Positions 6,486 through 48,415 of a stretch of 64,000 nucleotides of DNA are shown here, piece by piece. Each line of letters opens with the position of its first letter. Within the stretch, counting starts at the first letter, position 1. The translations under genes were made by a program, and so were the position numbers. Source of the stretch: a virus; IMG/VR virus record IMGVR_UViG_3300014059_000004; one strand, written 5' to 3'. A model generated the notes under the pieces. The model worked only from the letters and a program-made list of their open reading frames with translations. It was not told the DNA's origin and did not search any database.

Positions 6486-6869
6486 ATGGCTGAAGAGAAG
6501 AAGATCGACTACAACGCGTTGGGTCAATCGATCGATACAACGTTTGGAAGATCATCGACGCCTAAAACTGCGTCATATTCTGTGAAGTTTTCGCTTGCTG
6601 GAAACACGATCACTGCGTCCTATGCAGCAATCGTTAACTTCGGCACAGAAAAAGAGATGATATTGATGAAGAGAGGTTACTCTGAAGAGAGCACCTCTGT
6701 CATCAATGCTGCATTGAAGTCAGTGAAAGCCAATTACAAGAAGTTGTCTGGTCAAACATTGTCGACTTCTGAAGTTAGCACGTCAGATTCTCTTGAGATA
6801 ATTGGGTTTAACGTTCACAACCCTAAGAGAACGGCGTACTATCGTAGGAAGACGACGTTTGAGATCTGA
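6486..6869 (+). CDS. hypothetical protein (position compatible with a small terminase subunit, unproven)
   Basis: ORF immediately upstream of the large terminase, with AGGAG-like GGAGAG before the ATG. No recognisable motif. Confidence 0.35.
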   Translation: MAEEKKIDYNALGQSIDTTFGRSSTPKTASYSVKFSLAGNTITASYAAIVNFGTEKEMILMKRGYSEESTSVINAALKSVKANYKKLSGQTLSTSEVSTSDSLEIIGFNVHNPKRTAYYRRKTTFEI

Positions 6870-6871
6870 AA

Positions 6872-8524: not shown

Positions 8525-11500
8525 ATGACGATGCAAAAAAAGATCACAATGCCACAATTGAAGAAGATCATTGGAGAAGAACTTCGTCTTTCTTTGAAAG
8601 AAGCTGTCGATCATGCATCGATCAGAGAAGTGGTTAACGATGCAAGCAAGTTGCTTGCAGCTGTTGAAGCGTTCAAGAAGAGTGCCAACGGTAGCATGAT
8701 GAATGCGTTGACTCCTCAAATTTCCGACATTGAGAAGGTTCTAGAGGATATGGTTTCTACGCCTGGCTCATACGTCGAGAAGCAGAAGACCAAGCCTCAG
8801 AAAGTTTCTTTGAAGCCTGCCAAGAGTGGTAAGACGCTATTATCGCTCTTAAGCTTGTTCAAAGTAGTAGTATTAGAACTGCTCCAACAGAATGAAGGAG
8901 CTAACAACATGGCAAAGAAACAAACGAAGCAAAGTCTTTTTAAGCGTCTCACCAGGCTGTTTAAGTCTGGTCCAGTCATAAAGAAGAAGATCAGGAATGC
9001 TGATACTTCTATCGCAGTTGCAGATAAGACTAAGTCGTCTGGAACGTTGCTGTTTCAAAAGTCGTTGGCACCAACGTACGCAACGATCACAGCAAATGCG
9101 TACAACTTGTCAGAACGCCTGATGAGGTATCAAGACTACCAAGAAATGGAGATGTGCATTTCTGGTGACACAAAAATCGCTGTTCCGAACGGTTACAAAA
9201 CAATAAGAGAACTAGCTGAAGAGTGTGAGAATGATCTAGAAAAAACGTTCATTGTTTATTCGTACGATCACAACAAGGGTCAAATTGTTCCTGCACTTGG
9301 AAAACAAGCTAGACAAACATCTGTTGATCATGCATGGAAAGTAACATTTGACAGCGGGTTGTCTATTACTACTAGCGCTGGTCATAGATTGATGCTTCGT
9401 GATGGTACGTATCGAAAACTTGAAGAACTTCAAGTTGGAGATTCGATGATGCCATTTTATCGAAAAGACTTGTTTTCGAATGAAAATAATGAAAATTCGT
9501 CAAGTGGCGGTTATTCATGGATTTACACCATGGATAGTACGCACAAAAGCTGGACTAGAGAACATGTTCTAATTGCAGAATGGGTGTCTGGTCGACGATT
9601 GACAAAAGATGAATGTGTGCATCACATAAACTTTGTTAGATCAGACAACAGGCCTGAAAATCTGTTGATCATGAATAAGTTCGAACACAGTTCTTACCAT
9701 GCAAAAATCAATAACGAAAAAAAGTGGCACGTTAACAACAAAGAATGGATTGACAAATTTAAGAAAACACATTCTGAATGGATGAAAGTTAACAATCCCG
9801 CCGAAAGAAGAGATGTAACTTTTGGACGAATTCTAGAAACGTGCGAAAAGATCGGATTCAATCAATCTGCGGTATGTTCTGCACTTGATGTAAGTGTAAC
9901 GGTTATTCAAAATCGTTTGAAGAAACACGGTTTTTCTAGTTTCGAATTGTTTGCAAAAACATACTGCAATGATTGGAAAAATAGCGGTTGGAATAATTCT
10001 GGTGAGAATAACCCACGCTTTGATAAAACCTTGACGTTTGCATGCATTTGTAACGCATACACAAATGACATGTCAGCAAAGAAACTAGCTGACATGTTGG
10101 GTACTACAGTTACAAAGATCATGAATCGAATTAGAACTGCCGGCTACAAAAATTATTCTGATTTTTCAGCTCAGTTCACTAACCATAAAATTGAATCAAT
10201 CGAGTACGTTGGTGTCATTCCTCTGTATGATCTTACTGTTGATGGCTACAAAAATTTTGCAACTGATTCGGTTGTTTCACACAATACTCCGGAAATAAGC
10301 TCGGCGCTTGACATCTATGCTGATGAAACTGTCGCGGCAGATGAAAAAGGTCGTGCTCTTCACATCTACTCAGACAATGAAAGAGTAAAAGAGATCCTTG
10401 AAGATCTTTTTTATGGTACGTTGAATCTCGAATTTAACCTTCGTTCTTGGGCAAGAAATCTTGTGAAATACGGTGATTTCTTTCTCTACAACGACGTTTC
10501 AGATGATTACGGTGTTGTTTCAGCGTTTCCAATTCCAGTCAATGAAATTGAGCGTGAAGAGAACTATGACAGAGAAGATCCGTTTGCCGTTCGTTACAGG
10601 TGGGTCACTCTTGGCAATCGAATCCTAGAGAATTGGGAAGTTTCTCACTTCCGTCTCTTGGGTAACGACATGTTCTTGCCATACGGTTCTTCAGTCATTG
10701 AACCTGCGCGCCGGATTTGGCGACAGCTTATTTTGATTGAAGACGCAATGCTTGTGTACAGAGTCGTGAGAGCGCCTGAGCGCCGCGTCTTTTACATTGA
10801 CGTGGGTAACATCCCTGCAAGTGAAGTAGAGCTATACGTCGAGCAGCAAAGAAAGAAGCTTAGGACGAATCAAGTCATCGACTCGAACACTGGGCGAGTT
10901 GACTTGCGCTATAATCCAATGTCTGTTGATGAGGATTATCTCATGCCGGTCCGCGGTGCAGAATCTGGAACGAAGATAGAAACACTTGCAGGCGGACAGA
11001 ACACTGCAGCAGTTGAAGACGTAGCATACATCCAGAAAAAGCTATTTGCGGCGCTGAAAATTCCTCGTGCATACTTGGGTTACGATGAGGCGCTATGCCT
11101 GGATCAGTCAACTTCTATCCCACTTTACGATGGTCGGACATTGACAATAGAAGAAATAGCGACTGAGTTTAACGCTGGAAAACAGAACTGGACATACACG
11201 ATCGATTCATCAGGCAAACATGTTCCTGGAAAAATTATCGATGCATGGAAGACAAAAGACGTTACTGAACTTTATCATGTGACTCTTGATAATGGTCATG
11301 TTGTCAAGTGCACAGCAAATCATCCATTCATGCTTAGAGATGGCACGTATCGTCGAGCAGATGAATTGAAGAAGGATGACAGTCTGATGCCAGTTTATAG
11401 AAAGTTTTCGTCAAAGTCTGATGGTGATTTTCAGAATGGCTATGAAAAAATTCTGAACAATAATACTGGACGTTGGGAATATACACATCGTCTAGCAAAC

Positions 11501-13318
11501 GAAGCTGGACTAGTTACTGATCATGCATCACGTGATCTTGAGAGATCATATGTAATTCATCATATCGATCATGATAAACGAAATAACAATCCAACAAATT
11601 TGATCAAGATGGGCAAGCGTGCTCATATTTTGCATCATTCTAGCGGTGCACGTGCTAATTTGTTGTCAAACACTGCTCGCGTCGCTCTTCGTGAAACAAT
11701 GAAGACGCAAAAGTACATCGATGATCATCTTAAAGGCGTTCAGAACAGCTGGGATAATTCAATCACGAGAAGAAATTCAATTGCTGTATCAAATTCACAA
11801 CAAAAACGTGTGAATATTTCAATCGAATCATTTAATGAATTGGCACTTAAATGTAGTGCAAGATCAGAATTTTATAAGCGTCTTAAGAGCGATTTGAACG
11901 TTAGTCGTACGTGCTTTGTTAACAACTTGTCTAGATCAACAATTGACGTTCGAACGTGGTTGTCATCTCATTTTGGTGTTATTAAGCATCGTGGAAATAG
12001 TAAGAAACTTAACTTCAATTTGCAAGACTTGATTGATGAATGCGTTAAACACAAAATTCGTAGCATAACTGAGTGGAGGCGTTGTAAGGATGTTTCGGTT
12101 AGTGGGCATGTTGTTAAACGAGTTTTGAATAACGCAGGGTACAAAGATTTTGCTAGCTTTGCAAAAACGTTGAATCATCAAATTGTTAACGTCGAACTAG
12201 TAAAACTAGACGAACCGCGAGCCGTCTATGATTTGACGATTGAGGGAAATCATAATTTTGCCATTGAAGCTTCAGAGTCAGAATGTAGCGATGACAGCTT
12301 GTCAAGTATGATTGTTGTTCACAACAGTTCAAAGGCAACGCTAGCCCAAGAAGATATCAGATTTTCCAGGACAATCTCAGTAATCCAGAAAACAATCATC
12401 TCTGAGCTTAATAAGCTAGCGATCATTCACCTATATGCTCATGGTTTTGACGGAGAGGATCTGCAGAATTTTACTCTTCGTCTTTCGAATCCTTCTACTG
12501 TTGCACAGCAGCAGAAGCTTGAGTTGTGGAGAGCAAAGTTTGAGATCGCTGGTTCTGCACCAGAAGGTTTTGTTGACAAGAACTTCATAAGAAAAGAAAT
12601 TTGGGGTCTTAACGAAGAGCAGTGCAAAGCTATCGATGACGCTCGTTTGAAAGATAAGATCGTTGATTCAACGATTGAGGGTGCTGCAGCTGGAGAAGCC
12701 GGAGCTGGCGGAGGTGATGCTGGCGTTGATGATCTATTTGGCGGCGACAACGGCGGAGAAGCAACTGGTGGAGAGGAAGCTGGGGGCGGAGGCGGAGAAG
12801 AAACACCACCTGAAGAAAATGCAGGCGAGGAACCAGAAGAAGAGGTTGAACCAGACGTTGAGCTTCTAACTTCAGCAGATTCTTTTGATGATGAAGTCTT
12901 TGGGTTGAAGGTTGGAAATTCTGTCAGAGACGTGGAAGTACCTGTGAAAGCGCAGAAGCAGCTTGACAGAGTGCTATACAATCGTGGTCGCTTGAGGACT
13001 CACGGAGCATCAAAGACGTTCATGCCAGATCTTGAGAAGATGACGTCAAATGATGAGCACGAATCGTTGAACGATCCTTTCGATTCTAATTGGATGAAAT
13101 CTGTGGTTAGCAATCCATTCGGTGAGAGCAGACAACACGAAAGACCAATAATGACGTCAGATATGATGTCTATTCTTCGAAATTGGTCTGTTACCAAGCG
13201 AGTCAATCGTGCCACCGCCACAGCGCAAAAGGTGATCACAGAATCGAATGATGACCTTGATGTGACTGTTGAATTCGACGAAGTATTTAATGATGACGAA
13301 CCAGGAGAGCAAGAGTAA
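8525..13318 (+). CDS. portal protein (T4 gp20-like) interrupted by two inteins; exteins about 810 aa
   Basis: Extein segments LIEDAMLVYRVVRAPERRVFYIDVGNIPA and ...DEDYLMPVRGAESGTKIETLAGG...AALKIPRAYLGYDE match T4 gp20 ([28 protein letters not shown] / ...[23 protein letters not shown]...). An alternative strong start lies at 8909 (AGGAG N9 ATG, MAKKQTKQSLFKRL, cf. gp20 N-terminus). Confidence 0.85.
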   Translation: MTMQKKITMPQLKKIIGEELRLSLKEAVDHASIREVVNDASKLLAAVEAFKKSANGSMMNALTPQISDIEKVLEDMVSTPGSYVEKQKTKPQKVSLKPAKSGKTLLSLLSLFKVVVLELLQQNEGANNMAKKQTKQSLFKRLTRLFKSGPVIKKKIRNADTSIAVADKTKSSGTLLFQKSLAPTYATITANAYNLSERLMRYQDYQEMEMCISGDTKIAVPNGYKTIRELAEECENDLEKTFIVYSYDHNKGQIVPALGKQARQTSVDHAWKVTFDSGLSITTSAGHRLMLRDGTYRKLEELQVGDSMMPFYRKDLFSNENNENSSSGGYSWIYTMDSTHKSWTREHVLIAEWVSGRRLTKDECVHHINFVRSDNRPENLLIMNKFEHSSYHAKINNEKKWHVNNKEWIDKFKKTHSEWMKVNNPAERRDVTFGRILETCEKIGFNQSAVCSALDVSVTVIQNRLKKHGFSSFELFAKTYCNDWKNSGWNNSGENNPRFDKTLTFACICNAYTNDMSAKKLADMLGTTVTKIMNRIRTAGYKNYSDFSAQFTNHKIESIEYVGVIPLYDLTVDGYKNFATDSVVSHNTPEISSALDIYADETVAADEKGRALHIYSDNERVKEILEDLFYGTLNLEFNLRSWARNLVKYGDFFLYNDVSDDYGVVSAFPIPVNEIEREENYDREDPFAVRYRWVTLGNRILENWEVSHFRLLGNDMFLPYGSSVIEPARRIWRQLILIEDAMLVYRVVRAPERRVFYIDVGNIPASEVELYVEQQRKKLRTNQVIDSNTGRVDLRYNPMSVDEDYLMPVRGAESGTKIETLAGGQNTAAVEDVAYIQKKLFAALKIPRAYLGYDEALCLDQSTSIPLYDGRTLTIEEIATEFNAGKQNWTYTIDSSGKHVPGKIIDAWKTKDVTELYHVTLDNGHVVKCTANHPFMLRDGTYRRADELKKDDSLMPVYRKFSSKSDGDFQNGYEKILNNNTGRWEYTHRLANEAGLVTDHASRDLERSYVIHHIDHDKRNNNPTNLIKMGKRAHILHHSSGARANLLSNTARVALRETMKTQKYIDDHLKGVQNSWDNSITRRNSIAVSNSQQKRVNISIESFNELALKCSARSEFYKRLKSDLNVSRTCFVNNLSRSTIDVRTWLSSHFGVIKHRGNSKKLNFNLQDLIDECVKHKIRSITEWRRCKDVSVSGHVVKRVLNNAGYKDFASFAKTLNHQIVNVELVKLDEPRAVYDLTIEGNHNFAIEASESECSDDSLSSMIVVHNSSKATLAQEDIRFSRTISVIQKTIISELNKLAIIHLYAHGFDGEDLQNFTLRLSNPSTVAQQQKLELWRAKFEIAGSAPEGFVDKNFIRKEIWGLNEEQCKAIDDARLKDKIVDSTIEGAAAGEAGAGGGDAGVDDLFGGDNGGEATGGEEAGGGGGEETPPEENAGEEPEEEVEPDVELLTSADSFDDEVFGLKVGNSVRDVEVPVKAQKQLDRVLYNRGRLRTHGASKTFMPDLEKMTSNDEHESLNDPFDSNWMKSVVSNPFGESRQHERPIMTSDMMSILRNWSVTKRVNRATATAQKVITESNDDLDVTVEFDEVFNDDEPGEQE
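9155..10285 (+). mobile_element. intein 1 (377 aa) with an HNH endonuclease domain, in the portal gene
   Basis: Starts at Cys in block A CISGDTKIAV; block B TSAGHRLM. Ends VYDLTVDGYKNFATDSVVSHN followed by the +1 Thr. Internal HNH motif HHINFVRSDNRPENL...H. In-frame length 1131 nt. Confidence 0.8.
11096..12325 (+). mobile_element. intein 2 (410 aa) with an HNH endonuclease domain, paralogous to intein 1
   Basis: Starts at Cys in CLDQSTSIPL; block B TANHPFML. Ends VYDLTIEGNHNFAI...IVVHN followed by the +1 Ser. HNH motif HHIDHDKRNNNPTNL...H. Shares LRDGTYR(K/R)..EL..(G/D)DS(M/L)MP.YRK with intein 1. Confidence 0.75.
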
Positions 13319-14189: not shown

Positions 14190-14809
14190 AAGAGCAACGG
14201 TTGCTAAGCACGTACGACGTGCATGATTATGAAGTGATCACCGAAGTCAGCGACAAGCCGACAGGCCCTGTCAAGAAGATCATGATGAAGGGAATCCTTC
14301 AGAAAGCTGATACGCTAAATCAGAACGGTAGAATCTACCCAAAGTACGTTCTCGAGCGTGAAGTAAGAAACTACCAAAAGTTCATCCTCGAGAATAGGGC
14401 TCTAGGAGAACTAGACCACCCAGATTCATCAGTTGTTAACTTGAAGAACGTTTCTCACATCGTTAGAGAAGCTTACATGGAAGATGGTACTGTGTACGGA
14501 ACAGTTGAGATCCTTGACACGCCGTCTGGAAAAGTTTTGCAATCACTAGTTGAGTCAAAGGTGAAGCTTGGAATCTCCTCGCGAGGCGTCGGTTCAACTG
14601 CAAAGAAGGGTGATTATTACGAGGTTCAAGACGACTTTCAGCTTATCTGCTGGGACTATGTATCGGAACCATCAACTCCCGGAGCTTTCATGATTCCTGA
14701 AGGTAAAAAGATAACGCAAGCTGAACTAAATAAGGTCTTTAATAGATCTGATCGAATTGACAGGATCTTGAACGAAATTCTCAAGAAGTTATGCCAACTG
14801 GGTCTATAA
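14186..14809 (+). CDS. prohead core protease (T4 gp21-like)
   Basis: ATGA overlap with the upstream gene. NGRIYP...LGELDHPDSS...GTVEILDTPSGK...KLGISSRGVGS resembles the conserved His/Ser blocks of prohead proteases. Position between portal and scaffold/MCP. Confidence 0.7.
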   Translation: MKEQRLLSTYDVHDYEVITEVSDKPTGPVKKIMMKGILQKADTLNQNGRIYPKYVLEREVRNYQKFILENRALGELDHPDSSVVNLKNVSHIVREAYMEDGTVYGTVEILDTPSGKVLQSLVESKVKLGISSRGVGSTAKKGDYYEVQDDFQLICWDYVSEPSTPGAFMIPEGKKITQAELNKVFNRSDRIDRILNEILKKLCQLGL

Positions 14810-15585
14810 AGTTTATTTCTGCTAATTGTAAGCGATGTGGCACATCATTTAGTTATCGTTACAAAGCTAGCAAACGATCTCAAGTATTTTGCAGTCGGTC
14901 TTGTTCGAACAAAGAAGTGAAGCGAAATCGTTCTGAAAAAGATCTATTGTCTTCTTGGACTAAGACAATTGGTTCAGAAGCTGCAGATGAAAAACTTCAA
15001 CGTTTGAAGTTGTCAAAGAGTGAATCTGCAACAAGAAATAACACTGGCAAGAATCATTCAGACATCACAAAGAGAAAGATTTCTGAATCTTGCCAAGGAA
15101 ACAAAAACGTTTTGAAGGGACGAACATATCTTGAGTATTATGGTCCGGATCGAGCAAAACAATTGTCTGAAGAGCATTCAAGAAAATTGAAAGAAGGTTA
15201 TGCTTCTGGAAGAATCAAGCCTTCTGTTCGAACGAAATCAGCACCAGCATACAAGAATGTCAAGCTAAGAAGCATGCTTGAACTCAGAGTTATTCGTTTT
15301 CTAGAAGAGAGCGAAAATTTGTGCTTTAATGATTCATTGTTTTACGAGCATCCGGATGCTCATGTAACTTGGCATGATTCCACGGGTGCTGGTCACACTT
15401 ACATTCCAGATCTTTACGTACCAAGTGCAGAACTTGTGATTGAGGTTAAGCCTCAACGATTTGTTGACAGTCCGACTGAAGAAATGATGAAGAAGAAAGA
15501 TGCAGTTCTTCGTGAAGGATATAAATTTGAATACTACACAGAAAGAACGATAACATGTCGCTTAACAATCCAAAAGGCGGCCTAG
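14791..15585 (+). CDS. free-standing homing endonuclease (Zn-ribbon + NUMOD3-like repeats + PD-(D/E)XK nuclease)
   Basis: CKRCG...CSRSC zinc ribbon. HSDITKRKISES and EEHSRKLKEGYASG are NUMOD3-like. C-terminal YIPDLYVP..LVIEVKP is PD-(D/E)XK. Confidence 0.6.
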   Translation: MPTGSIKFISANCKRCGTSFSYRYKASKRSQVFCSRSCSNKEVKRNRSEKDLLSSWTKTIGSEAADEKLQRLKLSKSESATRNNTGKNHSDITKRKISESCQGNKNVLKGRTYLEYYGPDRAKQLSEEHSRKLKEGYASGRIKPSVRTKSAPAYKNVKLRSMLELRVIRFLEESENLCFNDSLFYEHPDAHVTWHDSTGAGHTYIPDLYVPSAELVIEVKPQRFVDSPTEEMMKKKDAVLREGYKFEYYTERTITCRLTIQKAA

Positions 15586-15986
15586 GATACGCTGCTGAAT
15601 TTCAATCATCGGCGCTTCCATGGGTAACAAGCAGCCAAGTTCCCGTTGTAACGTCTGGAATTCTACGTTGTGACTTTCCTAAAGTCAGTAGGTTCGTAAC
15701 TGTTTTGAATAATGCTAGTGCTTCAGCCGGTCAAGAAGTTCGAATCGGATTCACTAGGAATGGAATGACAGCTGGTTACTACAGCGTTCTAGCAGGTGGT
15801 CAGCAGACGACGATGGAAGTTAGAGTCACTAGCCTCTACATTGCTGGTGACACCAGCAACAATCTTCGAGTTTCTGTTCTTGCTGGTCTGACTAACATTG
15901 ATAAGTCAATGATGCCTCAACTGTCAGGAACACTTGATTCGGGCGACGTTGGTTGGTCTGGCGTCGGTTTACAAGAGGAAATTTAA
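15555..15986 (+). CDS. hypothetical protein
   Basis: ORF in the head module. TAATG overlap with def. Confidence 0.4.
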   Translation: MSLNNPKGGLGYAAEFQSSALPWVTSSQVPVVTSGILRCDFPKVSRFVTVLNNASASAGQEVRIGFTRNGMTAGYYSVLAGGQQTTMEVRVTSLYIAGDTSNNLRVSVLAGLTNIDKSMMPQLSGTLDSGDVGWSGVGLQEEI

Positions 15987-16480
15987 TGGAACTAGTCAAA
16001 ATACCTGATGATCGTTTGCGGTTCTTGTCCGGACCGGTTGACAAGTTCGATCGTTCGCTTCAAGAGCTATCAACTAGCATGAAATTGGTGATGGCTGTCA
16101 ATGGCGGCGTCGGCCTAGCTGCACCTCAAGTTGGTGTCAACAAGAGGGTCATAGTTGTCAACGTAGCGCCTGGTAGCAGCACACCAGACTTGATCACCAT
16201 GGTGAATCCAGTCATAGTGTACTCTTCAAGCTCGCAAGAAGCCGGCGAAGAGGGTTGCTTGTCTGTTCCGGGTGAACGATGCACCGTGACACGCGCAAAA
16301 TCTGTTGAAGTCGAATACAGAGAACCGAATGGGTTCTTCAAGAAGAAGATCTTCACTGGCTACGTTGCTAGAATTGTGCAGCACGAGATAGACCATTTGG
16401 ACGGTGTCTTGATGATCGATCGCTCAGCAACCCCTCTAGAAGCACACACGAGGGCACAAGAATATATTTCGGCTCACTGA
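15986..16480 (+). CDS. def: peptide deformylase
   Basis: All three PDF motifs are present: GVGLAAPQVG, EGCLSVPG and QHEIDHLDG. Length 164 aa. AGGA RBS 8 nt upstream of the ATG. Confidence 0.9.
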   Translation: MELVKIPDDRLRFLSGPVDKFDRSLQELSTSMKLVMAVNGGVGLAAPQVGVNKRVIVVNVAPGSSTPDLITMVNPVIVYSSSSQEAGEEGCLSVPGERCTVTRAKSVEVEYREPNGFFKKKIFTGYVARIVQHEIDHLDGVLMIDRSATPLEAHTRAQEYISAH

Positions 16481-25082: not shown

Positions 25083-25089
25083 TGCATTT

Positions 25090-25457
25090 GGGCGCGAAAT
25101 AGTTTCGACAGGGTCTTGAAATTGACAACTGCAGGTGCCAGTGCACGAGGATCTGGCTTACAATCCATGTGACGTATAGATGCCAACGACAACGGCACGG
25201 CTCCTCTCGCCCTCGCGGCATGAGGAACGGGTCTTTAGCGCCTAGGAAAAGAAGGCTAAAGAATGTCAGGGAACCAGACACTAACTGGAACACCGTCAAA
25301 GCTCTGGACGTAAAACGTAGAGCCGACTTGGTAACCAGGAACGTTAAACTTCGCGTTACTAGTCCCGCTTTGAGGACGATTCAACAGATAAGCAAAACCT
25401 GTGTATGAAGTTTCAACGTAGTGATCTTGGACCCGGGGGCAGTACCCGGCGCGTCCA
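25090..25457 (+). ncRNA. ssrA: tmRNA (transfer-messenger RNA, SsrA), about 368 nt, tag ANDNGTAPLALAA
   Basis: 5' GGGCGCGAAAUAGUUUCGACAGGG matches the E. coli tmRNA 5' GGGGCUGAUUCUGGAUUCGACGGG. The acceptor stem GGGCGCG/CGCGUCC includes the G3-U70 wobble (Ala identity). T-arm CCGGG-GGCAGUA-CCCGG is followed directly by the 3' acceptor strand and discriminator A. Internal resume codon GCC at 25182 opens a 13-codon ORF ending in ALAA-UGA at 25221-25223. A T-rich tract lies downstream. Confidence 0.8.
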
Positions 25458-25508
25458 CAAATTTTATCTACTGCGCTTATTGTATAGAGTTAGAACAGGA
25501 GATAACAC

Positions 25509-25691: not shown

Positions 25692-25909
25692 TGCAGTACG
25701 TTAATCTATTTGAGCCGTTGCTTGCTCACAGAAAAGGACCGGCTCCTGTGTTCATCAACGTTGGTGTTCAGGCCGTTGACATGTATACTGAGTCTGGAAC
25801 TGTTGCTGCACCAGTAACGTCTGAGACTTACGTTAAGCTATCTTCATTGCCACCTGAACTGCGTGAACGCGTGAAGACAGCTGTTCAAGCTATTTTCTCG
25901 GGGATGTGA
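25688..25909 (+). CDS. hypothetical small protein
   Basis: ORF with ATGA overlap with the previous gene. Confidence 0.4.
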   Translation: MMQYVNLFEPLLAHRKGPAPVFINVGVQAVDMYTESGTVAAPVTSETYVKLSSLPPELRERVKTAVQAIFSGM

Positions 25910-26544
25910 TTAACAGAAATATCAACTGTTTCTGAAAGTCTAAGTTTCTTTAGTTCCCTAGCTTTCTTGCGCCGTGTAAGTTCTTTAGATCTCCAGATCG
26001 GATCTTGCCATAGTTTTTTCACAGCTTCTCTAGATTCAGGGTTTGACCATCGTCTGATTTGAGCATCTTTTGATTTTTGCTTAGCTTCTGGCGTGGCATT
26101 GCGCTCAGCAAGTTTTTGTCGACGCGTGTCAGACATTGGTGGATTAGACCAGTATTTCTTTTGTGCTTGGCGCATTTTTTCTTTGTGTTCTGGCGTTTTT
26201 GGAACGTTTTTCATTTTTTTGCTCATTTCTTCAGGAGCACTAGTTTTTCCACCATCACCTCCTGGCGTCATATTGTACCCGTGGTTTGGGTCGTTACTAG
26301 TAAAAATGGATATCCATTTCGATTCGCAAATGTTTGCATCAGCAGTTGTTTCTGTTGATTCTAGTATTTCATGAACCCAAGAGTCTAGAGGATATTTGCG
26401 TATAGCATGACTAATGTGAAATGATTTCCCCTTAAGGGCAGCATTAACATGTGCCTTCCAACGCTTTTCAAGCGTACTTTTTGTCTTTCCTATGTAACAC
26501 TTGCCACTGATTGTGTTAGTATGCTTGTATATGATGATTGTCAT
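25885..26544 (-). CDS. GIY-YIG homing endonuclease
   Basis: IIYKHTNTISGKCYIGKT...RWKAH...E...N. Basic C-terminal NUMOD-like repeats TPEHKEKMRQAQ / TPEAKQKSKDAQ. Opposite strand to all neighbours. Confidence 0.75.
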   Translation of the reverse strand: MTIIIYKHTNTISGKCYIGKTKSTLEKRWKAHVNAALKGKSFHISHAIRKYPLDSWVHEILESTETTADANICESKWISIFTSNDPNHGYNMTPGGDGGKTSAPEEMSKKMKNVPKTPEHKEKMRQAQKKYWSNPPMSDTRRQKLAERNATPEAKQKSKDAQIRRWSNPESREAVKKLWQDPIWRSKELTRRKKARELKKLRLSETVDISVNHIPEKIA

Positions 26545-36909: not shown

Positions 36910-37170
36910 TGCAACGTGCTGCACCATGACTGCTTGCTCACCAAGCCACTTCTTTGCTAGCTTGAACTTTTTGCAAGTGAGTTCGCTAATCTTAAATGAC
37001 CCTGGGTGGGTCAAATAATTGGGGACGTAACAGAGATACATCGGCGATGAATCGTATTCATCGTATGAGACGTTGATGATCTGGACTTTGATCTGCCTGA
37101 TCGTCTTGTCCCTGTACCCAAAGTTGTCTTCGATGTTCAGAACCAGCTCGTCGCCAACATTGCTAGCCAT
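36781..37170 (-). CDS. hypothetical Zn-ribbon protein on the minus strand
   Basis: C-terminal CTRCKDF...CRACKENPW. Divergent from 37273. Confidence 0.4.
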   Translation of the reverse strand: MASNVGDELVLNIEDNFGYRDKTIRQIKVQIINVSYDEYDSSPMYLCYVPNYLTHPGSFKISELTCKKFKLAKKWLGEQAVMVQHVASIARRIEAPRGEQCTRCKDFIVGASKSEDEFRCRACKENPWR

Positions 37171-37272
37171 AATTTAACTGTACCTCTCTTCAGATAAACG
37201 TTGCATACATGAGTTCAACCGGGTTACGTTCAATACATATTCGTAGTGCTAGATCGAAAAGGAAAGTAAAGA

Positions 37273-39132: not shown

Positions 39133-40520
39133 CCAACAGATTTAACGCTAGAGGAGCAGTCAATCACGGTGTAGCACCGCTTCCATCTGGGTACCCAGAA
39201 GGCCCGACTACGTCCATCACCATCCCACCAGTGGGGATTGAAGATGTTGACGTGTCTTTGTTTCAGTTGTTCAACAAAGAATTGCCACTGCTTGTGACAG
39301 AAGGCGAGGGTACTGGTACGAAAAGAGTTCCGATCATCTTTGCTGGCGGCGAGAAGTGGGCACTCATCAAGAAGAACAAGTCAATAAGAGACAAGAACGG
39401 TTCTTTGATCCTACCGATCATAGTGATCGGACGCACTAACATAACGCAATCACCAGTCACTGACATCACCGGTCGGGGAATCAACCAGATGACTGGTGAG
39501 ATCATAGTGAGAAGAAAACTAGATAATTCAGACCGTAGCTACCAAGGTTTGATTAATCGAGTTTTTCTGCGTCACTCGAGTGGGCTTGGTGTGCCAGTTG
39601 CGATGGCCGACAGCGGTCAGCTAGCCACAGAGCGCCGCGTCGGCGAGCTAGGGGATGAAGTTGGTATCGTTGCTGATGGCGGCTTGATGGTACCAGATCG
39701 CACAAACAACATCTACGAGACGCTTGTTGTTCCATCACCGCAGTTTTACACAGCAACGTACGAAGTTGAGATCTGGGCGCAGTACCGTCGGCAGATGAAT
39801 CAGCTGCTTGAGACGTTGATCTCTTCTTTCTTGCCGCAGACACGTGGTTGGAAACTTTCAACACCAGCCGGTTATTGGTTCGTTGCAACGCTAGCAGATG
39901 AAAATTTCACGCCAGACATGAACTTTGATGACATGAGCACCGCGGAAAGGATGATCAAGACGAAGTTTGAGATCAACGTTCCTGCGTACATCTTGGCATC
40001 GTCAGCACCAGGCGTGCCGCTAGCTGTGAAGCGCTACGTTTCAGTCCCAGAAGTTAACTTTAGCGTCGGTCTACCGCTGCCAGAAGCGTCTGTTAGAGAT
40101 GGCGTTGATGATCCATTCTTGGGAGCTGACGATCCGACGTTGCCGTTGTCTGCCGTTAGAAATGGTAGACGTGATCAAAGAGAAACTGGGCGAGGTCGCC
40201 TGTTCATTGCTAGCGAGCAGATTGATCCAAATGATCCAGCTCTTCAAGCATTCTCAAGGGGAAGAAACCCACCTCAGTACAAGAGATACTTGGCTCGTAA
40301 TTCTCGCGGTGAACTTGTTGAAAGGTTCGTTCGAATCACAACTGTTAATTCTAACACTGGTGAAACAGTCTACTCGACGGGCGTAGACATGGGCGACTTG
40401 TCAATAGAAGTGATCGATGGATTAGCACCAATCTCACGCGGTTTTCGTCAAGAACCTTTGATACTTATCGTAGCGATTCCAACCACAGAAGAGAAGATCG
40501 ATGCCAGAGCAAACATTTAA
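39129..40520 (+). CDS. putative tail/baseplate protein immediately upstream of the sheath gene
   Basis: ORF with ATGA overlap upstream and overlap with the sheath gene start. Confidence 0.4.
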   Translation: MTNRFNARGAVNHGVAPLPSGYPEGPTTSITIPPVGIEDVDVSLFQLFNKELPLLVTEGEGTGTKRVPIIFAGGEKWALIKKNKSIRDKNGSLILPIIVIGRTNITQSPVTDITGRGINQMTGEIIVRRKLDNSDRSYQGLINRVFLRHSSGLGVPVAMADSGQLATERRVGELGDEVGIVADGGLMVPDRTNNIYETLVVPSPQFYTATYEVEIWAQYRRQMNQLLETLISSFLPQTRGWKLSTPAGYWFVATLADENFTPDMNFDDMSTAERMIKTKFEINVPAYILASSAPGVPLAVKRYVSVPEVNFSVGLPLPEASVRDGVDDPFLGADDPTLPLSAVRNGRRDQRETGRGRLFIASEQIDPNDPALQAFSRGRNPPQYKRYLARNSRGELVERFVRITTVNSNTGETVYSTGVDMGDLSIEVIDGLAPISRGFRQEPLILIVAIPTTEEKIDARANI

Positions 40521-43515
40521 GTCACCAAATTTTTACGAGCGCGAAATTGATCTTTCAGCTCCGCAGATTGCAGGTCCCGTCGGCGTACCGGCTGGTGTCA
40601 TCGGAACTAGCAACAAGGGACCAGCGTTTGTGCCGGTCACTGTTGGAAATTTTGATGAATTCGTAGCTAGATTTGGTAATCTAGATCCAAAGAGATTTGG
40701 ACCGTATGCTGTCAAAGAATTCTTGCAGCACAAGACTGCTCTAACGTACTTGAGAGTCCTTGGTGCGGGAGCGAACGCATCTTCTTCTGACATTCTTACG
40801 ACTCAAACGACCGGTCGAGTTCTGTCGGCAGGCATGTACTTGAATGGAACGGCAGCGGCTCACGATAACCTTGGTCGTCACAACGGTGCGGTGCAGTTTC
40901 TCGCTGCTCGGCACACGTTGCAGACGAACGAAGCTTACGGAATCCCACTCTTCACGGACAACGATTCTTACACTGGTTCTACTGTTAACTTGATCAGAGG
41001 CATGATCATGACGCCAACCTCTTCGAGGGTCATGGTCCTTGGTGGTGGAACTGCAGCGCCCCTTGGAACGTTCAACGGCTCGAACTCTGATTCGGCGACG
41101 CTGTCTGGCGGTAAGTTCAAGCTGATCATCTCTTCTACGTTGGGAAACACGTTCTGGAATTCAGACAACAACCCTGGTGTGAAGATCTTCACTGCAAGCT
41201 TGAACCCAACTGACGCTGATTACTTTGCGAAGATCCTTAACACAGATCCAGACAAGTTCGTCTCTGAGCAGCACTACTTGTACGCTGATTTCCCAGTTGA
41301 TGATGAGCTAGCAACAGCGACAGTCGTCGGCGTTCTCTCTGGGTCGAATGTCACTTCAGCTAACTCTGGTGACACCACGCTTGCAATGAGAAAAGCCTTC
41401 GGCGCTTTCGACACCAGGTACAAGGCACCATCAACTTCGTACTTCATCTCGCAACCTTTCGGTGCAACTGAGTACGATCTGTTCAAGTTTGAAGCTCTTG
41501 ATGATGGTGAGTATGCAAACACTCTCTACAAGATTGCAATCACCGATCTTAAGGCATCGCTTGATGATTCAAACCCTTACGGTACGTTCACCGTGCAGGT
41601 GAGAGATTGGACAGACACGGACACGAATCCTAAGGTTCTGGAGTCATTCCCTAACTGCTCTTTGAATCCAACCGCTACGAACTACGTTGCGAAGCTAGTT
41701 GGCGATAGAAAAGTTACGTTCAACTTCGATGCAACAATTGACGCCGAGCGCAGGATTGTCACCTTCGGAAAGTACGATAACAAGTCCAAGTACGTCAGAA
41801 TCGTCATGACAGATGCTGTCGAGAGAGCGCTAGTTCCTCAGAAGACGCTTCCGTTCGGATTTCATGGACATCAGCTTCCGAAGACAAACGATCTTCTGAC
41901 TGATACGTCTCCTTCGACAGCAACGTCAAGGTTGGCGGCATCGTTGGGCGTATCTGTTGCATCGTCTCTGTCTGGTTCCTTGCTTCCGCCCGTGCCTTTC
42001 AGAGTGAAAGTTACGAAGGGCGACGCACCTTCTGGCGCAGCTTGGCAAGGTCTACCAGGTTCAACAGAGCTTGTTTTGTCGCAGCTTTACTGGGGCGTTA
42101 AGTTCGAAAGAAACACGAATGCTCTGAACCCAAATCTTGTCAGCGAGAAGAACGCGCTGCTTGCATCTTACACGAAGTTCCTTGGCATCGACAAGCTCGA
42201 TGTTCTTGTAAGCGGATCGGGTGCAGATACGTTCAACAACAACAAGTTCACGCTTGCCAAGGTTGCTTTCTCCAACGCCGCGATCACGCACCTCACTGCA
42301 TCAGTTACTGAGCACATGAAGGAAGCTGCGTACATCAGAAACGGTAAGCTTGATACGTCGAACTACACGATCAACGATTCAGCTATCGGAACGAGAGTTA
42401 CGCTAGCTACGATCCTTGCAAAGGACACGGCAGCGAACTTTAACAAGTTCTCTACGTTCACCAAGTTCGTCACCTTCATGGGTGGCGGCTGGGACGGTGT
42501 CAACATCCTTGATAGGGATGCACGCAGGCTCAACGATAAGGCATCATCGTTCGATGCGGGTGGCGGAGCAGAAGTTGGTTACACCGCACCAGGCCTTGGA
42601 TTCAATCCAAGCGGTACTGATCAGCTTAACTCGACTGTTGCGTCTTACAAGACTGCAGTTGATATCATGACTGATCCAATGACTGTCAACACTAACATCC
42701 TCACGATCCCTGGTATCAGAGAGACGTTTGTGTCTGATTACGCTATGAAGAAGGTGCGTGACTACGGTCTAGCATACTACGTCATGGACATTCCTTCGTA
42801 CGATGATGCATCAGCTCGCCTGTACGATGATTCAACAGCGCGCCCATCTGTTGACAAGACGGCGGAGCAAGTTGACACAAGAGCGATTGATAACAACTAC
42901 GCTGGAACGTACTACCCAGACGTATACATTGATGATGCTACGAACAAGCGTAGGGTCAAGGTGCCGGCGTCTGTTGCAGCGATGGGTGCTTTGGCATTCA
43001 ACGACAGGGTTGCATATCCTTGGTTCGCACCAGCAGGTTTCAACAGAGCGTCTCTTGACTTTGTCAGCAATGTTGCTGTCAGATTGAACGTCTCTGACAG
43101 AGATAGGCTTGATGCTTCTAGGATCAACCCGATCGCAACTTTCCCAAGGTTGGGCTTTGTGATCTACGGTCAGAAGACGCTGCAGATCAACAAGTCTGCT
43201 CTTGACAGAGTCAACGTCAGGCGTCTCCTCCTAGAAGTCAAGAGAATCATCATTGACATCGCGCAGCGTGGCGTGTTTGAGAACAACACGCCAGAAGTTA
43301 GAAACAAGTTCGTTGCAGATGCAACGTTGCAGCTCGGACTCATCCAGGCGCAAGCTGGTGTTGAGCAGTTCCAAGTTGTGATGAACGAAACGAACAACAC
43401 GCAGGAAGACGTCGATCTTAACCGCCTCAACGGAAAGATCATGATTGTTCCAACACGCACAATCGAGTATATCGCGATCGATTTTGTGATCACGAACAGC
43501 GGAGTAGTTTTTTAA
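40501..43515 (+). CDS. tail sheath protein, copy 1 (gp18-like, 1004 aa)
   Basis: N-terminal SPNFYEREIDLSAP...PAGVIGTSNKGPAFVPVTVG resembles the gp18 N-terminal pattern. The conserved C-terminal block ALDRVNVRRLL...PTRTIEYIAIDFVITN is paralogous to the 44443 gene. Confidence 0.8.
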   Translation: MPEQTFKSPNFYEREIDLSAPQIAGPVGVPAGVIGTSNKGPAFVPVTVGNFDEFVARFGNLDPKRFGPYAVKEFLQHKTALTYLRVLGAGANASSSDILTTQTTGRVLSAGMYLNGTAAAHDNLGRHNGAVQFLAARHTLQTNEAYGIPLFTDNDSYTGSTVNLIRGMIMTPTSSRVMVLGGGTAAPLGTFNGSNSDSATLSGGKFKLIISSTLGNTFWNSDNNPGVKIFTASLNPTDADYFAKILNTDPDKFVSEQHYLYADFPVDDELATATVVGVLSGSNVTSANSGDTTLAMRKAFGAFDTRYKAPSTSYFISQPFGATEYDLFKFEALDDGEYANTLYKIAITDLKASLDDSNPYGTFTVQVRDWTDTDTNPKVLESFPNCSLNPTATNYVAKLVGDRKVTFNFDATIDAERRIVTFGKYDNKSKYVRIVMTDAVERALVPQKTLPFGFHGHQLPKTNDLLTDTSPSTATSRLAASLGVSVASSLSGSLLPPVPFRVKVTKGDAPSGAAWQGLPGSTELVLSQLYWGVKFERNTNALNPNLVSEKNALLASYTKFLGIDKLDVLVSGSGADTFNNNKFTLAKVAFSNAAITHLTASVTEHMKEAAYIRNGKLDTSNYTINDSAIGTRVTLATILAKDTAANFNKFSTFTKFVTFMGGGWDGVNILDRDARRLNDKASSFDAGGGAEVGYTAPGLGFNPSGTDQLNSTVASYKTAVDIMTDPMTVNTNILTIPGIRETFVSDYAMKKVRDYGLAYYVMDIPSYDDASARLYDDSTARPSVDKTAEQVDTRAIDNNYAGTYYPDVYIDDATNKRRVKVPASVAAMGALAFNDRVAYPWFAPAGFNRASLDFVSNVAVRLNVSDRDRLDASRINPIATFPRLGFVIYGQKTLQINKSALDRVNVRRLLLEVKRIIIDIAQRGVFENNTPEVRNKFVADATLQLGLIQAQAGVEQFQVVMNETNNTQEDVDLNRLNGKIMIVPTRTIEYIAIDFVITNSGVVF

Positions 43516-43552: not shown

Positions 43553-44338
43553 ATGAAAATGTGGTACGTATACGAAGACTGGACGACGGAAGATAATCCC
43601 AGATGTTATTACGTTGGTAAGGGTGATGATGATCGTATTATGAAAGTTAAACGAAATCAACATCATACCAACGTAGTTTCTTTGTACGGATTTGATCGTC
43701 GTATTGTGCTTACAACGTCTTCAGAAATAGAAGCTCTAGAGCTGGAACGAAAGTTGATTGTTGAACGTCAGACTTATTCTAAAGCGATTGACTACAATGG
43801 TATTGGTTGTAATCTTACTCTTGGTGGACAAGGAAATTCAGGTCGAATAGTGACTGAAGAAACCTGCAGAAAAATTTCTGATGCTAAACGCGGGAAAAAA
43901 TCAACCAAAATTTGGTCAGATGCAGAACGTACTGCGACTTCTATTAGAATGAGCAATCTTCATAAAGGTAAACGCATTAGTGAAGAACACAAAAGTATTC
44001 TTAAAGCGAGAATGTCAGATCCAGAAATTAAGCAAGATATGATTGACAAAGTCAGTGCGTCACTCAAGAAAAAGTATGAATTTGATTTGAGTTTTCGACA
44101 GCGAATTGTTGAAACACGCGCTCGCGGTGAAAATAATCCTAACACTCCATTTACTGAAGACGATGTTAGAAAAATGAGAGATGAATGGAGACAAGTTGAC
44201 AAAGTTACAAAGGGTAATAGATGGTCAGGAATTTCTCCTTCATCGAAATTTTGTAATTGCTGGGCTGAGCGTTTTGGAGTTACTACTCAAGCAATAATTG
44301 CTATTGTTACAGAGAAAACATGGAAACATCTGCTATGA
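43553..44338 (+). CDS. GIY-YIG homing endonuclease with NUMOD3-like repeats
   Basis: MWYVYED...CYYVGKG...R...E. GRIVTEETCRKISDAKRG and KGKRISEEHKSILKARMSD are NUMOD3-like. AT-rich relative to the flanks. Confidence 0.7.
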   Translation: MKMWYVYEDWTTEDNPRCYYVGKGDDDRIMKVKRNQHHTNVVSLYGFDRRIVLTTSSEIEALELERKLIVERQTYSKAIDYNGIGCNLTLGGQGNSGRIVTEETCRKISDAKRGKKSTKIWSDAERTATSIRMSNLHKGKRISEEHKSILKARMSDPEIKQDMIDKVSASLKKKYEFDLSFRQRIVETRARGENNPNTPFTEDDVRKMRDEWRQVDKVTKGNRWSGISPSSKFCNCWAERFGVTTQAIIAIVTEKTWKHLL

Positions 44339-44414: not shown

Positions 44415-44442
44415 ATTGATACTTACACTGCAGAGGCATAGG

Positions 44443-47400: not shown

Positions 47401-47514
47401 GAGAACAACACGATTCGCGGTAAGATCTTCGTGCAGCCAACCCGTACGATAGAGTATGTCAGTCTTGATTTTGTTGTAACAAACAACATTCAAGCAGCAT
47501 TAACTTCCAACTGA
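44443..47514 (+). CDS. tail sheath protein, copy 2 (gp18-like)
   Basis: The ATG at 44443 has a GAGG RBS; the ORF track starts at the TTG at 44416, inside the hairpin. N-terminus EIDLSGPVVQQPVGIPAGVIGTATKGPAFVPVTVG and C-terminus ALDRVNVRRLLIEIRR...PTRTIEYVSLDFVVTN are paralogous to copy 1. Confidence 0.8.
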   Translation: MSQIKFGSAGVSAKEIDLSGPVVQQPVGIPAGVIGTATKGPAFVPVTVGSIDDFYLKFGKTDGKKFGPLAVTEWLRNAGALTYVRVLGVGDGKQRVADGTTAGSVTNAGFTVGSLQPRSSDGALAGNNYANSGTLGSPLGRTYFLGAFMSESAGSTAFSDAGLQGAGSVTPGITSSVPVLRGVLMAPSGVILRLSSSAEGTNSAPSSTLVATDATANGSMIGAVVLTDGSVSKQDFVMLLNGHKGTDPLYPNVITASFDLTSPNYFANVLNTDPYKMQQAGHYLYASWDIHPAVAAVTGSGLVYPVSGAAGSQVAKSGQESSAFLTTGSLGRNLGSSTVPNYESFSDRFSHAKSPWVISQKFGGSAANLFRLHALDAGAGVSTLYKVSIENITPSSDSQNRYGTFDLVLRDWSDRDGNLIPLEQFRGLSLDPSSDRYIAKIIGDAHVFYDFDRSEPAQKLVVDGNYTANSNLVRVEVDPGVENQTVDPTALPMGFRGIEHLVTSGSAPMTSIAGTQLSAATYLKRVVTPPLPMRTNITAGSGNKVQVNPLLYWGAQFEHVTSLSTPNASTYKNDSMKAFAKYFPNFSTVNQNFSVGDNTGDVDTDTWGIIDADRFCNNMFTLENIQVVTGSTTYADSAQWASAQYVRNGNITASDSAKTRRFSVNDLIQANRRYAKFSFLMQGGFDGVNLFDRDSVEINNAAVTADMNSTTRNRDQGANVRSYAKALEIMKNVVSVDVQLLAIPGIRHAIVTDAAADAVRERFDALYIMDIEQFDNTGVEVTSDSQMPSVTSTASSFSSRAVDNSFAAAYFPDVVMPDPNTKTNLVVPPSVAVLGALALNDAVGHPWFAPAGFTRGALSTTLEARVQLSKTNMDALYDVNINPIVAFPGNASGGTSPKGGVVVWGQKTLQAAASALDRVNVRRLLIEIRRQVRDISRTIIFEPNRAATLARFSSAVTPRLQRIQALSGLERFRVIIDSSTTTQADIENNTIRGKIFVQPTRTIEYVSLDFVVTNNIQAALTSN

Positions 47515-47527
47515 ATCAGTTAACTTC

Positions 47528-47563
47528 AAACGCTCGGATTGTTCATCCGAGCGTTTGTTTGTT
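47528..47563 (+). terminator. rho-independent terminator after sheath copy 2
   Basis: 12-bp stem AAACGCTCGGAT-tgttc-ATCCGAGCGTTT followed by GTTTGTTT. Confidence 0.65.
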
Positions 47564-47593
47564 ACAATAGTACCAACTGAATTGAGTAACTTA

Positions 47594-48415
47594 ATGCATG
47601 TTATCTACAGACACACAAACAAACTAAATTTGAAAATTTATGTCGGGCAAACAGTAACGTTGAATGAAAATACAGCTGAAGAGTCTATGTACAAAAGATG
47701 GGCATCACATTGCAAAGATGCAAAATTGAATTCAAAACTAAGATTTCACGTAGCAATTAGAGATTTTGGAGAAGAAAATTTTCTTCATGAAGTTATAGAA
47801 ATATGTGAAAATCAAGAGCAAGCAAATCAACTAGAAATATTTTGGATCGAAAAACTTAAATCGTATGTTGCTTACGGTGGTTATAACATGATCCTCGGAG
47901 GTGGCGTTGGATCTGGCAGTAGAAATCCAATGGCTATTTTGACAGAAGAAATTGTAGCTAAGATAAAAGCAGCATGGAATGAAGAAAAACCATACGAAAC
48001 GTTGTTGTTGGGTGAATTTTATCAAAAATATGCTAAGCTTTATGGTGTTAAACCAGACACTATAACCCACATCATTAAAGGCAGATTGTGGATGGGTGTT
48101 GGGCCCATTGTTGAATGTTCATCAAATGATCATACCGGCAAAAGTCCAATAACCGGCTCCAAGTTGAAGAAGAAATGGAAAGAAGATGAAGACTTTCGTC
48201 AGAGAGAAATCAAAAAACGACAAGGTGAGAATAATTCAAGTGCAAAATTGTCAGAAGAAACTATTCGACAAATAAGACTAGACTTCCAGCAAGTTGATGT
48301 AACTAAATTTGGTGCAAAATCAATTTTCTACAGACATATGGCTGAAAAATATTCTGTGACGCCAGAGTTGATATGCGGAATTGTCAGAAGAACGTGTTGG
48401 AAGCACGTCACTTAA
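47594..48415 (+). CDS. GIY-YIG homing endonuclease
   Basis: MHVIYRHTNKLNLKIYVGQT...KRW..H...E motifs. AT-rich. The ORF track begins at an upstream alternative start at 47555. Confidence 0.7.
   Translation: MHVIYRHTNKLNLKIYVGQTVTLNENTAEESMYKRWASHCKDAKLNSKLRFHVAIRDFGEENFLHEVIEICENQEQANQLEIFWIEKLKSYVAYGGYNMILGGGVGSGSRNPMAILTEEIVAKIKAAWNEEKPYETLLLGEFYQKYAKLYGVKPDTITHIIKGRLWMGVGPIVECSSNDHTGKSPITGSKLKKKWKEDEDFRQREIKKRQGENNSSAKLSEETIRQIRLDFQQVDVTKFGAKSIFYRHMAEKYSVTPELICGIVRRTCWKHVT

Follow-up and report, generated by a model that had tools for sequence, protein, structure and literature searches.

A phage-encoded one-piece tmRNA gene with an alphaproteobacterial-type T-loop and D-loop

We examined a stretch of 64,000 nucleotides of the IMG/VR virus record IMGVR_UViG_3300014059_000004 (hereafter, the window), in which the open reading frames (ORFs) are tightly packed and nearly all lie on the plus strand, and focused on a gene for transfer-messenger RNA (tmRNA, ssrA) that an initial annotation, made from the sequence alone, had proposed there. 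The gene lies in an ORF-free gap of 426 nt (25083-25508). This gap is the longest of the window and not the only long one, as had been claimed: two further gaps exceed 300 nt (6556-6871, 316 nt; 36910-37272, 363 nt), and neither gave an Rfam match at gathering thresholds. We detected a full-length one-piece tmRNA on the plus strand (25090-25457), which runs from the acceptor G1 through the discriminator A. In agreement with the proposal, the covariance model of RF00023 matched positions 25090-25460 over its full length (model positions 1-374 of 374) with 50.0 bits (E = 9.6e-17; gathering score 47), and it was the sole Rfam family matched in the window.

The features of the RNA are reported in Table 1. 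The acceptor stem of 7 bp with its G3-U70 pair (GGGCGCG with CGCGUCC), the T-arm CCGGG/GGCAGUA/CCCGG directly abutting the 3' acceptor strand, the discriminator A without an encoded CCA, and a tag frame of the ANDx...ALAA type, which reads ANDNGTAPLALAA from GCC to UGA, were all found as first annotated. Every helix is intact in the window copy, and a U-A-G precedes the resume codon at -5 to -3. Five small pseudoknots (ten stems) follow the tag, which with pseudoknot 1 (PK1) brings the whole RNA to six, whereas four are typical of tmRNA (PMC11915505). The acceptor stem with its alanine identity, the tag frame, PK1 with helix 2, and the post-tag pseudoknots all correspond to the RF00023 form. 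The T-loop departs from the consensus UUC(R)ANY and fits it only at C56 and R57; alphaproteobacterial tmRNAs work with such a loop, and the departure does not bar the RNA from the standard tmRNAs. The T-arm string has a single occurrence in the window and none in 100 shuffles. Minimum free energy z-scores, an uninformative measure for an RNA so rich in pseudoknots, were -1.06 on the plus strand and -2.17 on the minus strand.

Table 1. Features of the tmRNA and their positions in the window.
Feature	Position	Strand	Remarks
Acceptor stem, 5' strand GGGCGCG; G3 (25092) pairs with U70	25090-25096	+	7/7 pairs with 25450-25456
D-loop analogue AAAUAGUUUCGA, with conserved UCGAC motif	25097-25108	+	A25101-G25102 at the G18-G19 positions (AG for canonical GG)
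Helix 2 (H2), 5' strand: H2a 25109-25114, H2b 25116-25121, H2d 25131-25136	25109-25136	+	
Helix 2 partners: H2a with 25424-25429, H2b with 25411-25416, H2d with 25397-25402		+	
Pseudoknot PK1: stem 1 25137-25141 with 25153-25157; stem 2 25149-25152 with 25163-25166	25137-25166	+	
Tag frame: resume codon GCC, 13 codons (ANDNGTAPLALAA), stop UGA 25221-25223	25182-25223	+	
Helix 5 CCUC/GAGG, around tag end and stop codon	25203-25225	+	4/4 pairs form in the window
Pseudoknot PK2: stem 1 GGG/CCU, stem 2 CUUUAGC/GCUAAAG, loop CCUAGGAAAAGAA	25229-25261	+	
Small pseudoknot PKa	25264-25288	+	
Pseudoknot PKb: CGUC/GACG, GCUCU/AGAGC	25294-25323	+	
Pseudoknot PKc: CUUG/CAGG, GUAAC/GUUAC	25327-25359	+	
Pseudoknot PKd: GUCC/GGAC, GCUU/AAGC; last before helix 2 3' strand	25362-25393	+	
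Helix 2, 3' strand, standard type ...AAACCUGUGUAUGAAG...	25397-25429	+	Aligns confidently with bacterial one-piece tmRNAs
T-arm: 5-bp stem CCGGG/CCCGG, 7-nt T-loop GGCAGUA (25438-25444)	25433-25449	+	
Acceptor 3' strand CGCGUCC and discriminator A	25450-25457	+	CAA (not CCA) at 25458-25460

We regard it as practically certain that this is a genuine tmRNA gene carried by a phage. Tied to that judgement is the question whether the locus might hold no RNA gene at all, being instead a protein-coding gene or an attachment-site leftover within a host ssrA, and to this we give almost no credence. A 79-aa ORF with a GTG start is present (25169-25408), and GenBank annotators have put a hypothetical coding sequence (CDS) over the tmRNA of Rhodobacter phage RcRudolph; yet in the homologues the stop-free stretch varies between 26 and 125 aa in length and differs in frame, the indels are not multiples of three, and no ORF inside the RNA is conserved. 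Although integration into tmRNA genes is common (PMC11915505), the gene here has both its ends and is not a 3' fragment; the window showed no integrase, and the tmRNA occupies a fixed place in the structural module across a clade of T4-like phages.

ARAGORN called no tmRNA in the native window sequence. After an in silico change of T-loop positions 54-55 from GG to UU it called the gene with exactly the tag ANDNGTAPLALAA, while restoring CCA or the D-loop instead still gave no call. The T-loop is the sole cause of the miss.

Using nhmmer with the window RNA as seed, together with ARAGORN, we found a one-piece tmRNA in 13 further distinct contigs of the phage clade, and the tmRNA of a near-twin contig of 104 kb (IMGVR_UViG_3300033121_002020) differs at two positions. 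RF00023 also gave a full-length match above threshold in 22 relatives tested, with 52-99 bits for those sharing the type of T-loop and D-loop of the window (the alpha-type elbow, defined below) and 86-117 bits for those with a canonical elbow. As the main test, the structure derived from the window was projected, without structure fitting, on a MAFFT alignment of 14 members (62% mean identity), and compared with shuffled controls and with slid controls, in which the 3' partners were shifted. Standard pairs amounted to 78.6%, against 66.2±0.8% in the shuffled controls (0/500 as high) and 34-45% in the slid ones, so the compensatory pairing on which the initial annotation had staked its case is present. 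Pairs changed on both sides numbered 66 out of 86 (37.9±3.6 shuffled; 22-34 slid), and the covariation score was 0.349 (0.158 shuffled; 0.07-0.15 slid). MAFFT misplaces the gaps after the tag, and this region was realigned for seven members of the same architecture (alignment A3). There, 93.2% of pairs were formed, against 81.7±1.1% shuffled (0/500 as high) and 32-41% slid; 23 of the 43 pairs had changed on both sides (9.2±2.1 shuffled; 1-8 slid), and the ten post-tag stems were 71-100% paired.

Taking the 14-member alignment helix by helix, position 3 of the acceptor stem was G.U in 13 of the members, with compensatory changes at positions 2, 4, 5 and 6. H2a was 100% paired with three double-change pairs, H2d was 95% paired, and the T-arm stem was 98.6% paired with double changes in 4/5 pairs; H2b was only 51% paired and is not established. 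The two stems of PK1 were 97% and 87.5% paired (double changes in 4/5 and 3/4 pairs, respectively). Helix 5 was just 64-67% paired because of tag-length indels, and compensatory variants of it occurred in the relatives L200 and L140. In the seven-member realignment, PK2 stem 1 was 95% paired and invariant, whereas stem 2 was 90% paired with double changes in 6/7 pairs. PKa reached 95.5% (stem 1) and 71% (stem 2), and five relatives (L136, L140, L168, L132 and L167) have a hairpin of 6-8 bp at its site instead. Both stems of PKb were 100% paired with double changes, the relatives carrying variants such as CGCC/GGCG, ACACC/GGUGU and CUCCC/GGGAG. PKc was 82% (stem 1) and 97% (stem 2) paired, with a central A-U pair in the window against G-C in the relatives, and PKd was 100% (stem 1) and 96% (stem 2, double changes in 4/4 pairs) paired, or 94% and 90% in the 14-member alignment. 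Finally, between the window and the relative L130, whose RNAs are 70% identical (111 differences), 26 out of 33 changed helix pairs still pair. The RNA structure is under selection through compensatory change.

The tag peptide is identical in the window and in L130, where ARAGORN reads it natively; the tag sequences differ at two positions, both synonymous, and the peptide is under purifying selection. All the tags of the family start with ANDN and end with (L/I/V)AA or a close variant. The window tag also resembles alphaproteobacterial tags, e.g. ANDNRAPVALAA; the earlier idea that the tag hints at the host lineage holds as far as this likeness goes. In one sequence with an alpha-type elbow (L325:1209-1575), the tag apparently starts with GGC (Gly) and not GCN (Ala), giving GNDNGIAPLAFAA.

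That selection acts on structure and tag alike favours a working tmRNA over a decoy or a relic, and we put the probability of a functional phage one-piece tmRNA, acting in trans-translation in the infected cell, at roughly 80%. A decoy or inhibitor would soak up host SmpB, EF-Tu or alanyl-tRNA synthetase (AlaRS) and so shut down host trans-translation. Such a role would suit an RNA with a non-canonical T-loop, no encoded CCA and no SmpB encoded nearby, and the RNA of mycobacteriophage DS6A, which consists of a tRNA-like domain only, offers a precedent for tmRNA inhibition (PMC4131195, PMC11915505). The DS6A RNA is likewise a phage-borne tmRNA tRNA-like domain, but it has neither tag frame nor pseudoknots, whereas the window gene has all of these, under selection. 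A decoy needs the tRNA-like domain only, and the window RNA keeps the mRNA-like domain, PK1, helix 5 and five further pseudoknots by compensatory change. Since, in addition, the tag peptide is under purifying selection and the elbow equals that of working alphaproteobacterial tmRNAs, we find the decoy unlikely.

Several observations weigh against a working tmRNA. The RF00023 score of the window is just 3 bits over threshold and the lowest in the family, which we attribute to the alpha-type elbow. A scan of the flanks for a promoter or terminator gave nothing above chance. CCA is not encoded in the window, while it is encoded in 5 out of the 14 family members. Many contigs of the clade with complete flanks have no tmRNA, so the gene is accessory and dispensable. 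No SmpB was found in the window (Pfam) nor, with tblastn, in clade loci totalling 1.16 Mb (±10 kb round the capsid gene); function would therefore depend on compatibility with the host SmpB. Finally, in L327, a close relative with an alpha-type elbow, the tag stop UGA has become UUA, and not every copy need function. This copy (L327:6776-7147, identical to L333:11979-12350, one contig in two collections) has a read-through of 34 aa, ANDNGVAPFALAALGTGVPATLEQNAGKRQGTRR, with no ALAA end.

The patchy presence of a dispensable gene, the low score, the missing CCA and the lost stop codon of L327, along with a T-loop without the conserved UUC and a G3-C70 pair in the relative L141, could also be expected of a passenger, that is, a decaying or neutral copy of a host-captured tmRNA that has lost its function. 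We judge this quite improbable: all helices are intact in the window copy, the tag differences are synonymous only, and the T-loop change always comes with the matching D-loop change, a combination that recurs in 21 distinct viral sequences. Moreover, no bacterial tmRNA sampled matched the family profile with more than 64 bits, whereas members of the family scored 157-313 bits, which indicates that phages have long maintained these genes independently. On these same scores we rejected a recent capture from a bacterium.

The initial annotation had taken GGCAGUA for a divergent, phage-specific variant of the T-loop. It is instead the alphaproteobacterial two-piece type (RF01849 consensus CCGGGGGCgGUACCCGG), and the usual T-loop in the window's own phage family is canonical UUCGAUU. 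In place of the T-loop uridines 'seen in most sequences', Caulobacter is likewise reported to have UG and the mitochondrial tmRNA of Reclinomonas GG (PMC1168896). The Rfam alignments for two Rhodobacter phages give the alphaproteobacterial consensus as CCGGG-GGCgGUA-CCCGG for the T-arm and GGGGgCGAAAuAG for the 5' end. We defined the alpha-type elbow as a T-loop (G/U)GC(R)(R)UA together with a D-loop of the form ...AUAG...; the window has GGCAGUA and GAAAUAG.

We found that the two loops go together. The canonical T-loop was combined with the D-loop GG in 24 out of 26 distinct tRNA-like domains and the alpha-type T-loop with the D-loop AG in 38 out of 41; among members of the phage family, 7/7 alpha-type T-loops came with AG and 10/10 canonical ones with GG. 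In terms of tRNA numbering, A18/G55 replaces the G18/U55 contact and G19/C56 is retained, a clean natural case of tertiary-contact covariation. Scans for the one-piece order with an alpha-type T-loop recovered seven more distinct family members in viral and metagenome contigs, and a scan of IMG/VR alone with looser anchors gave 21 distinct one-piece sequences of 299-522 nt with the alpha-type elbow, including unrelated AT-rich lineages, all of them (21/21) with the D-loop AG. When 12 of the alpha-elbow one-piece sequences were searched with Rfam, 10 were full-length standard tmRNAs (52-99 bits). ARAGORN called 0/21 natively and 16/21 after the GG to UU swap. No cultured phage was found carrying any of these RNAs.

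Alpha-type elbows occur at scattered positions in the tree built from the RNA body, with L327 placed as sister to the canonical L145 (84% identity), while in the capsid tree the alpha-type elbow is found in 3 out of the 4 members of the clade to which the window belongs. The two gene ends have thus switched together several times, or have been exchanged, with the elbow state partly following phage lineage. The alpha-type elbow in a one-piece gene is a co-adapted alternative fold, not a sign of decay. Among the relatives with other elbows, L200:14357-14731 has a 6-nt T-loop, UGCAAU, with the D-loop AG, resembling the alpha variant UGCAAUA, and L167:14158-14526 combines the T-loop AUCAUUC with the D-loop GG. 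The most divergent member, L141:11610-11965, has G3-C70, G4.U69 and a discriminator G, and may not accept alanine.

We then compared the window RNA with known tmRNAs. Its gene order, from 5' acceptor to 3' acceptor, is that of bacterial one-piece tmRNA (RF00023, e.g. the Comamonadaceae ssrA with the tag ANDERFALAA, about 377 nt). Common to the window and the Comamonadaceae form are also G3.U70, the discriminator A, the UCGAC motif, the U-A-G before the resume codon, the PK2 loop CCUNGNAACAGAA, the H2d block AAGCNUGU and a similar length; the family profile aligns with Comamonadaceae tmRNAs end to end, yet with no more than 64 bits, as given above. In contrast to bacterial one-piece tmRNAs, the window has the T-loop GGCAGUA and D-loop AG for UUC(G/A)AUU and GG, five post-tag pseudoknots for three, no encoded CCA, and a phage as carrier. 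A scan of the genomes of 185,579 species for one-piece loci, in which the PK2 loop motif precedes a T-arm, gave at least 120 matches. The bacterial matches listed were mostly from Comamonadaceae (ANDERFALAA) and Acidimicrobiia, and 119 out of 120 listed had a canonical T-loop; the lone one with an alpha-type loop (L285) was rejected as a chance pattern match to an ordinary permuted Sphingomonas gene. A Comamonadaceae-type tmRNA with the tag ANDERFALAA was also present in L261 (CALRVR020000004.1), from a metagenome-assembled genome (MAG) named 'Synechococcus sp. UW140', and this contig is probably mis-binned.

Alphaproteobacterial two-piece tmRNAs (RF01849/RF04321), compared here in a set that includes the Rhodobacter phages RcRudolph and RcSimone-Hastad, Melnitz and pelagimyophages, share with the window the T-arm GGACCCGGGGGC(A/G)GUACCCGGCGC, the D-loop GAAAUAG, the tag style ANDN...AP(V/L)ALAA and the PK2 design. 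Unlike them, the window gene is not permuted, its 5' acceptor strand lying 339 nt upstream of the T-arm; it also retains the further pseudoknots beyond PK2 and an H2d of the standard type, and does not encode CCA. Among 120 viral loci with an alpha-type T-arm, every classifiable one (about 110) has its 5' acceptor strand downstream of the T-arm, by 40-298 nt, and only the window and its twin have it 339 nt upstream. The permuted alpha-type viral loci encode CCA (ACCA), apart from two with ACCC and one with ACCG. One candidate for a tandem intermediate, L345, with an overlapping 'permuted' Rfam match, had no upstream T-arm and was discarded as an artefact. In RcRudolph (OP009285.1, L002, ~49.1-49.5 kb) and RcSimone-Hastad (MW677525.1, L003, ~32.1-32.5 kb) we found unannotated permuted alphaproteobacterial tmRNAs (RF01849, 95-98 bits; tag ANDNVRMDAQALAA); in RcRudolph the 'hypothetical protein' CDS RCRUDOLPH_61 is annotated over the tmRNA.

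The mixture of characters raises the possibility of a re-permuted gene, in which an alphaproteobacterial two-piece tmRNA was rearranged back to the one-piece order in a phage. The alpha-type T-loop and D-loop and the ANDN...AP(L/V)ALAA tag would be explained in this way, the family profile matches alphaproteobacterial tmRNAs over the tag, helix 5 and the PK2 loop, and the Jakoba libera mitochondrial gene offers a precedent (PMC11915505). We consider it very unlikely, as most family members have a canonical elbow and the PK2 loop motif is also found in one-piece tmRNAs of Comamonadaceae and Acidimicrobiia. Furthermore, the family retains two elements that can be aligned to those of bacterial one-piece tmRNAs and that the alphaproteobacterial two-piece form lacks, namely the H2d 3' strand of the standard type (AAGCNUGU) and the block of the last pseudoknot, and the permuted model RF04321 gave only truncated matches on the window, of 32.2 and 14.9 bits, against a gathering threshold of 47. 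The comparison points instead to a family of standard proteobacterial-type tmRNAs that has long evolved in phages.

Phage tmRNAs are already accepted, though poorly understood, auxiliary genes. They have been reported in 402 out of 18,146 phage genomes (Buchholz 2022; PMC9004378), in 79 phage entries of the tmRNA database (PMC11915505), in huge phages (Al-Shayeb 2020; PMC7162821), and in cluster C mycobacteriophages (Bxz1 and others) and Bacillus phage G (PMC4131195). Like these, the window has a complete ssrA in a large lytic-type phage, no adjacent SmpB and a proposed role in sustaining or exploiting host ribosome rescue (PMC4131195, PMC7162821, PMC9004378); unlike them, it comes from an uncultured clade and has an elbow invisible to the ARAGORN used in those surveys. 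The window adds a family from an uncultured T4-like clade, and what is new here is modest: a tmRNA family with six pseudoknots, a hybrid of standard gene order and alpha-type elbow in which the D-loop change compensates for that of the T-loop, and a blind spot of ARAGORN. Because ARAGORN, the tool of the published censuses, misses 21/21 sequences of the alpha-elbow class, phage tmRNA frequencies are underestimated, especially in aquatic viromes, and covariance-model searches are preferable for phage tmRNA surveys. The alphaproteobacterial elbow also proves separable from gene permutation, to which it had been tied through the two-piece tmRNAs of Alphaproteobacteria and mitochondria.

In the proposed function, the tmRNA would probably be transcribed together with the structural genes on either side, as it begins 7 nt past the upstream stop codon and no promoter could be recognised for it alone. 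RNase P would cut the 5' end, and the 3' end would be trimmed and receive its CCA from the host CCA-adding enzyme; no such enzyme is encoded in the window. Host AlaRS would then charge the RNA with alanine, and host SmpB and EF-Tu would deliver it to stalled ribosomes, where translation would resume at GCC 25182 and append ANDNGTAPLALAA. The tagged product would be sent to host proteases and the ribosome freed. The likely benefit would be extra rescue capacity at a time when phage-induced mRNA decay makes many non-stop messages.

Elbow type switches among close relatives, and it could report which host machinery the RNA must fit. We suggest tentatively, at well below even odds, that phage one-piece tmRNAs have two interchangeable elbow designs, each matched to the SmpB or the tRNA-elbow readers of the host, and that phages with the alpha-type elbow infect Alphaproteobacteria. 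If so, the elbow would be a host-range marker, and the window phage and about 20 other elbow variants would infect Alphaproteobacteria. A separate one-piece tmRNA with an alpha-type elbow lies in L382:571-941 (minus strand; tag ANNNTHFESLRLAA, RF00023 86 bits). A neighbouring ORF of this contig (2990-4981, minus strand) has 40% amino acid identity to Methylophilales phage Melnitz and Pelagibacter phage HTVC008M, a likeness that fits an alphaproteobacterial host link and is no proof of it; the tmRNAs described for the Melnitz/HTVC008M group are two-piece (PMC9004378).

Structural and lysis genes of the phage, on the same strand, lie to either side of the tmRNA. Domain searches of the window identified T4-like modules (large terminase, gp20 portal, prohead protease, gp23 capsid, gp19 tube, a T4 baseplate protein and sheath-like proteins) and an M15 peptidase with a peptidoglycan-binding domain. 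We found no near-identical DNA among 50,697 GenBank phage records, where the only matches were short ones over the T-arm and tag to Rhodobacter phages. The best cultured relatives of the capsid were Flavobacterium and Microcystis phages (33-45% identity), while in IMG/VR at least 80 viral contigs, up to 309 kb in length, had capsids of 63-85% identity, which places the window in a large clade of uncultured phages, T4-like and in part jumbo. The site of the tmRNA is constant in the clade, 2-4 kb downstream of the capsid gene (~8 kb in L134). The initial annotation had also linked the tmRNA with a peptide deformylase (def) and a Nudix gene in a joint manipulation of host ribosome rescue. Both genes are real (def, 15953-16480; NUDIX, 54432-55157), but they lie ~9 kb and ~29 kb from the tmRNA and nothing links them to it.

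Some other genes of the window were also recorded. The portal (gp20) ORF (8525-13318, plus strand; 1597 aa) contains an intein (Intein_splicing, 120 bits) with an HNH_3 domain and a weak helix-turn-helix (HTH) match. Four ORFs resemble homing endonucleases, two with GIY-YIG and two with NUMOD3 domains (25885-26544, minus strand; 47555-48415, 14791-15585 and 43553-44338, plus strand); the minus-strand one, a GIY-YIG gene, follows the tmRNA after only ~430 nt. Finally, two ORFs of the plus strand, 40501-43515 and 44416-47514, of about 1000 aa each, gave weak partial matches to Phage_sheath_1 (20 bits) and Phage_sheath_1C (29 bits), and their products look like unusually large or duplicated sheath-like proteins.

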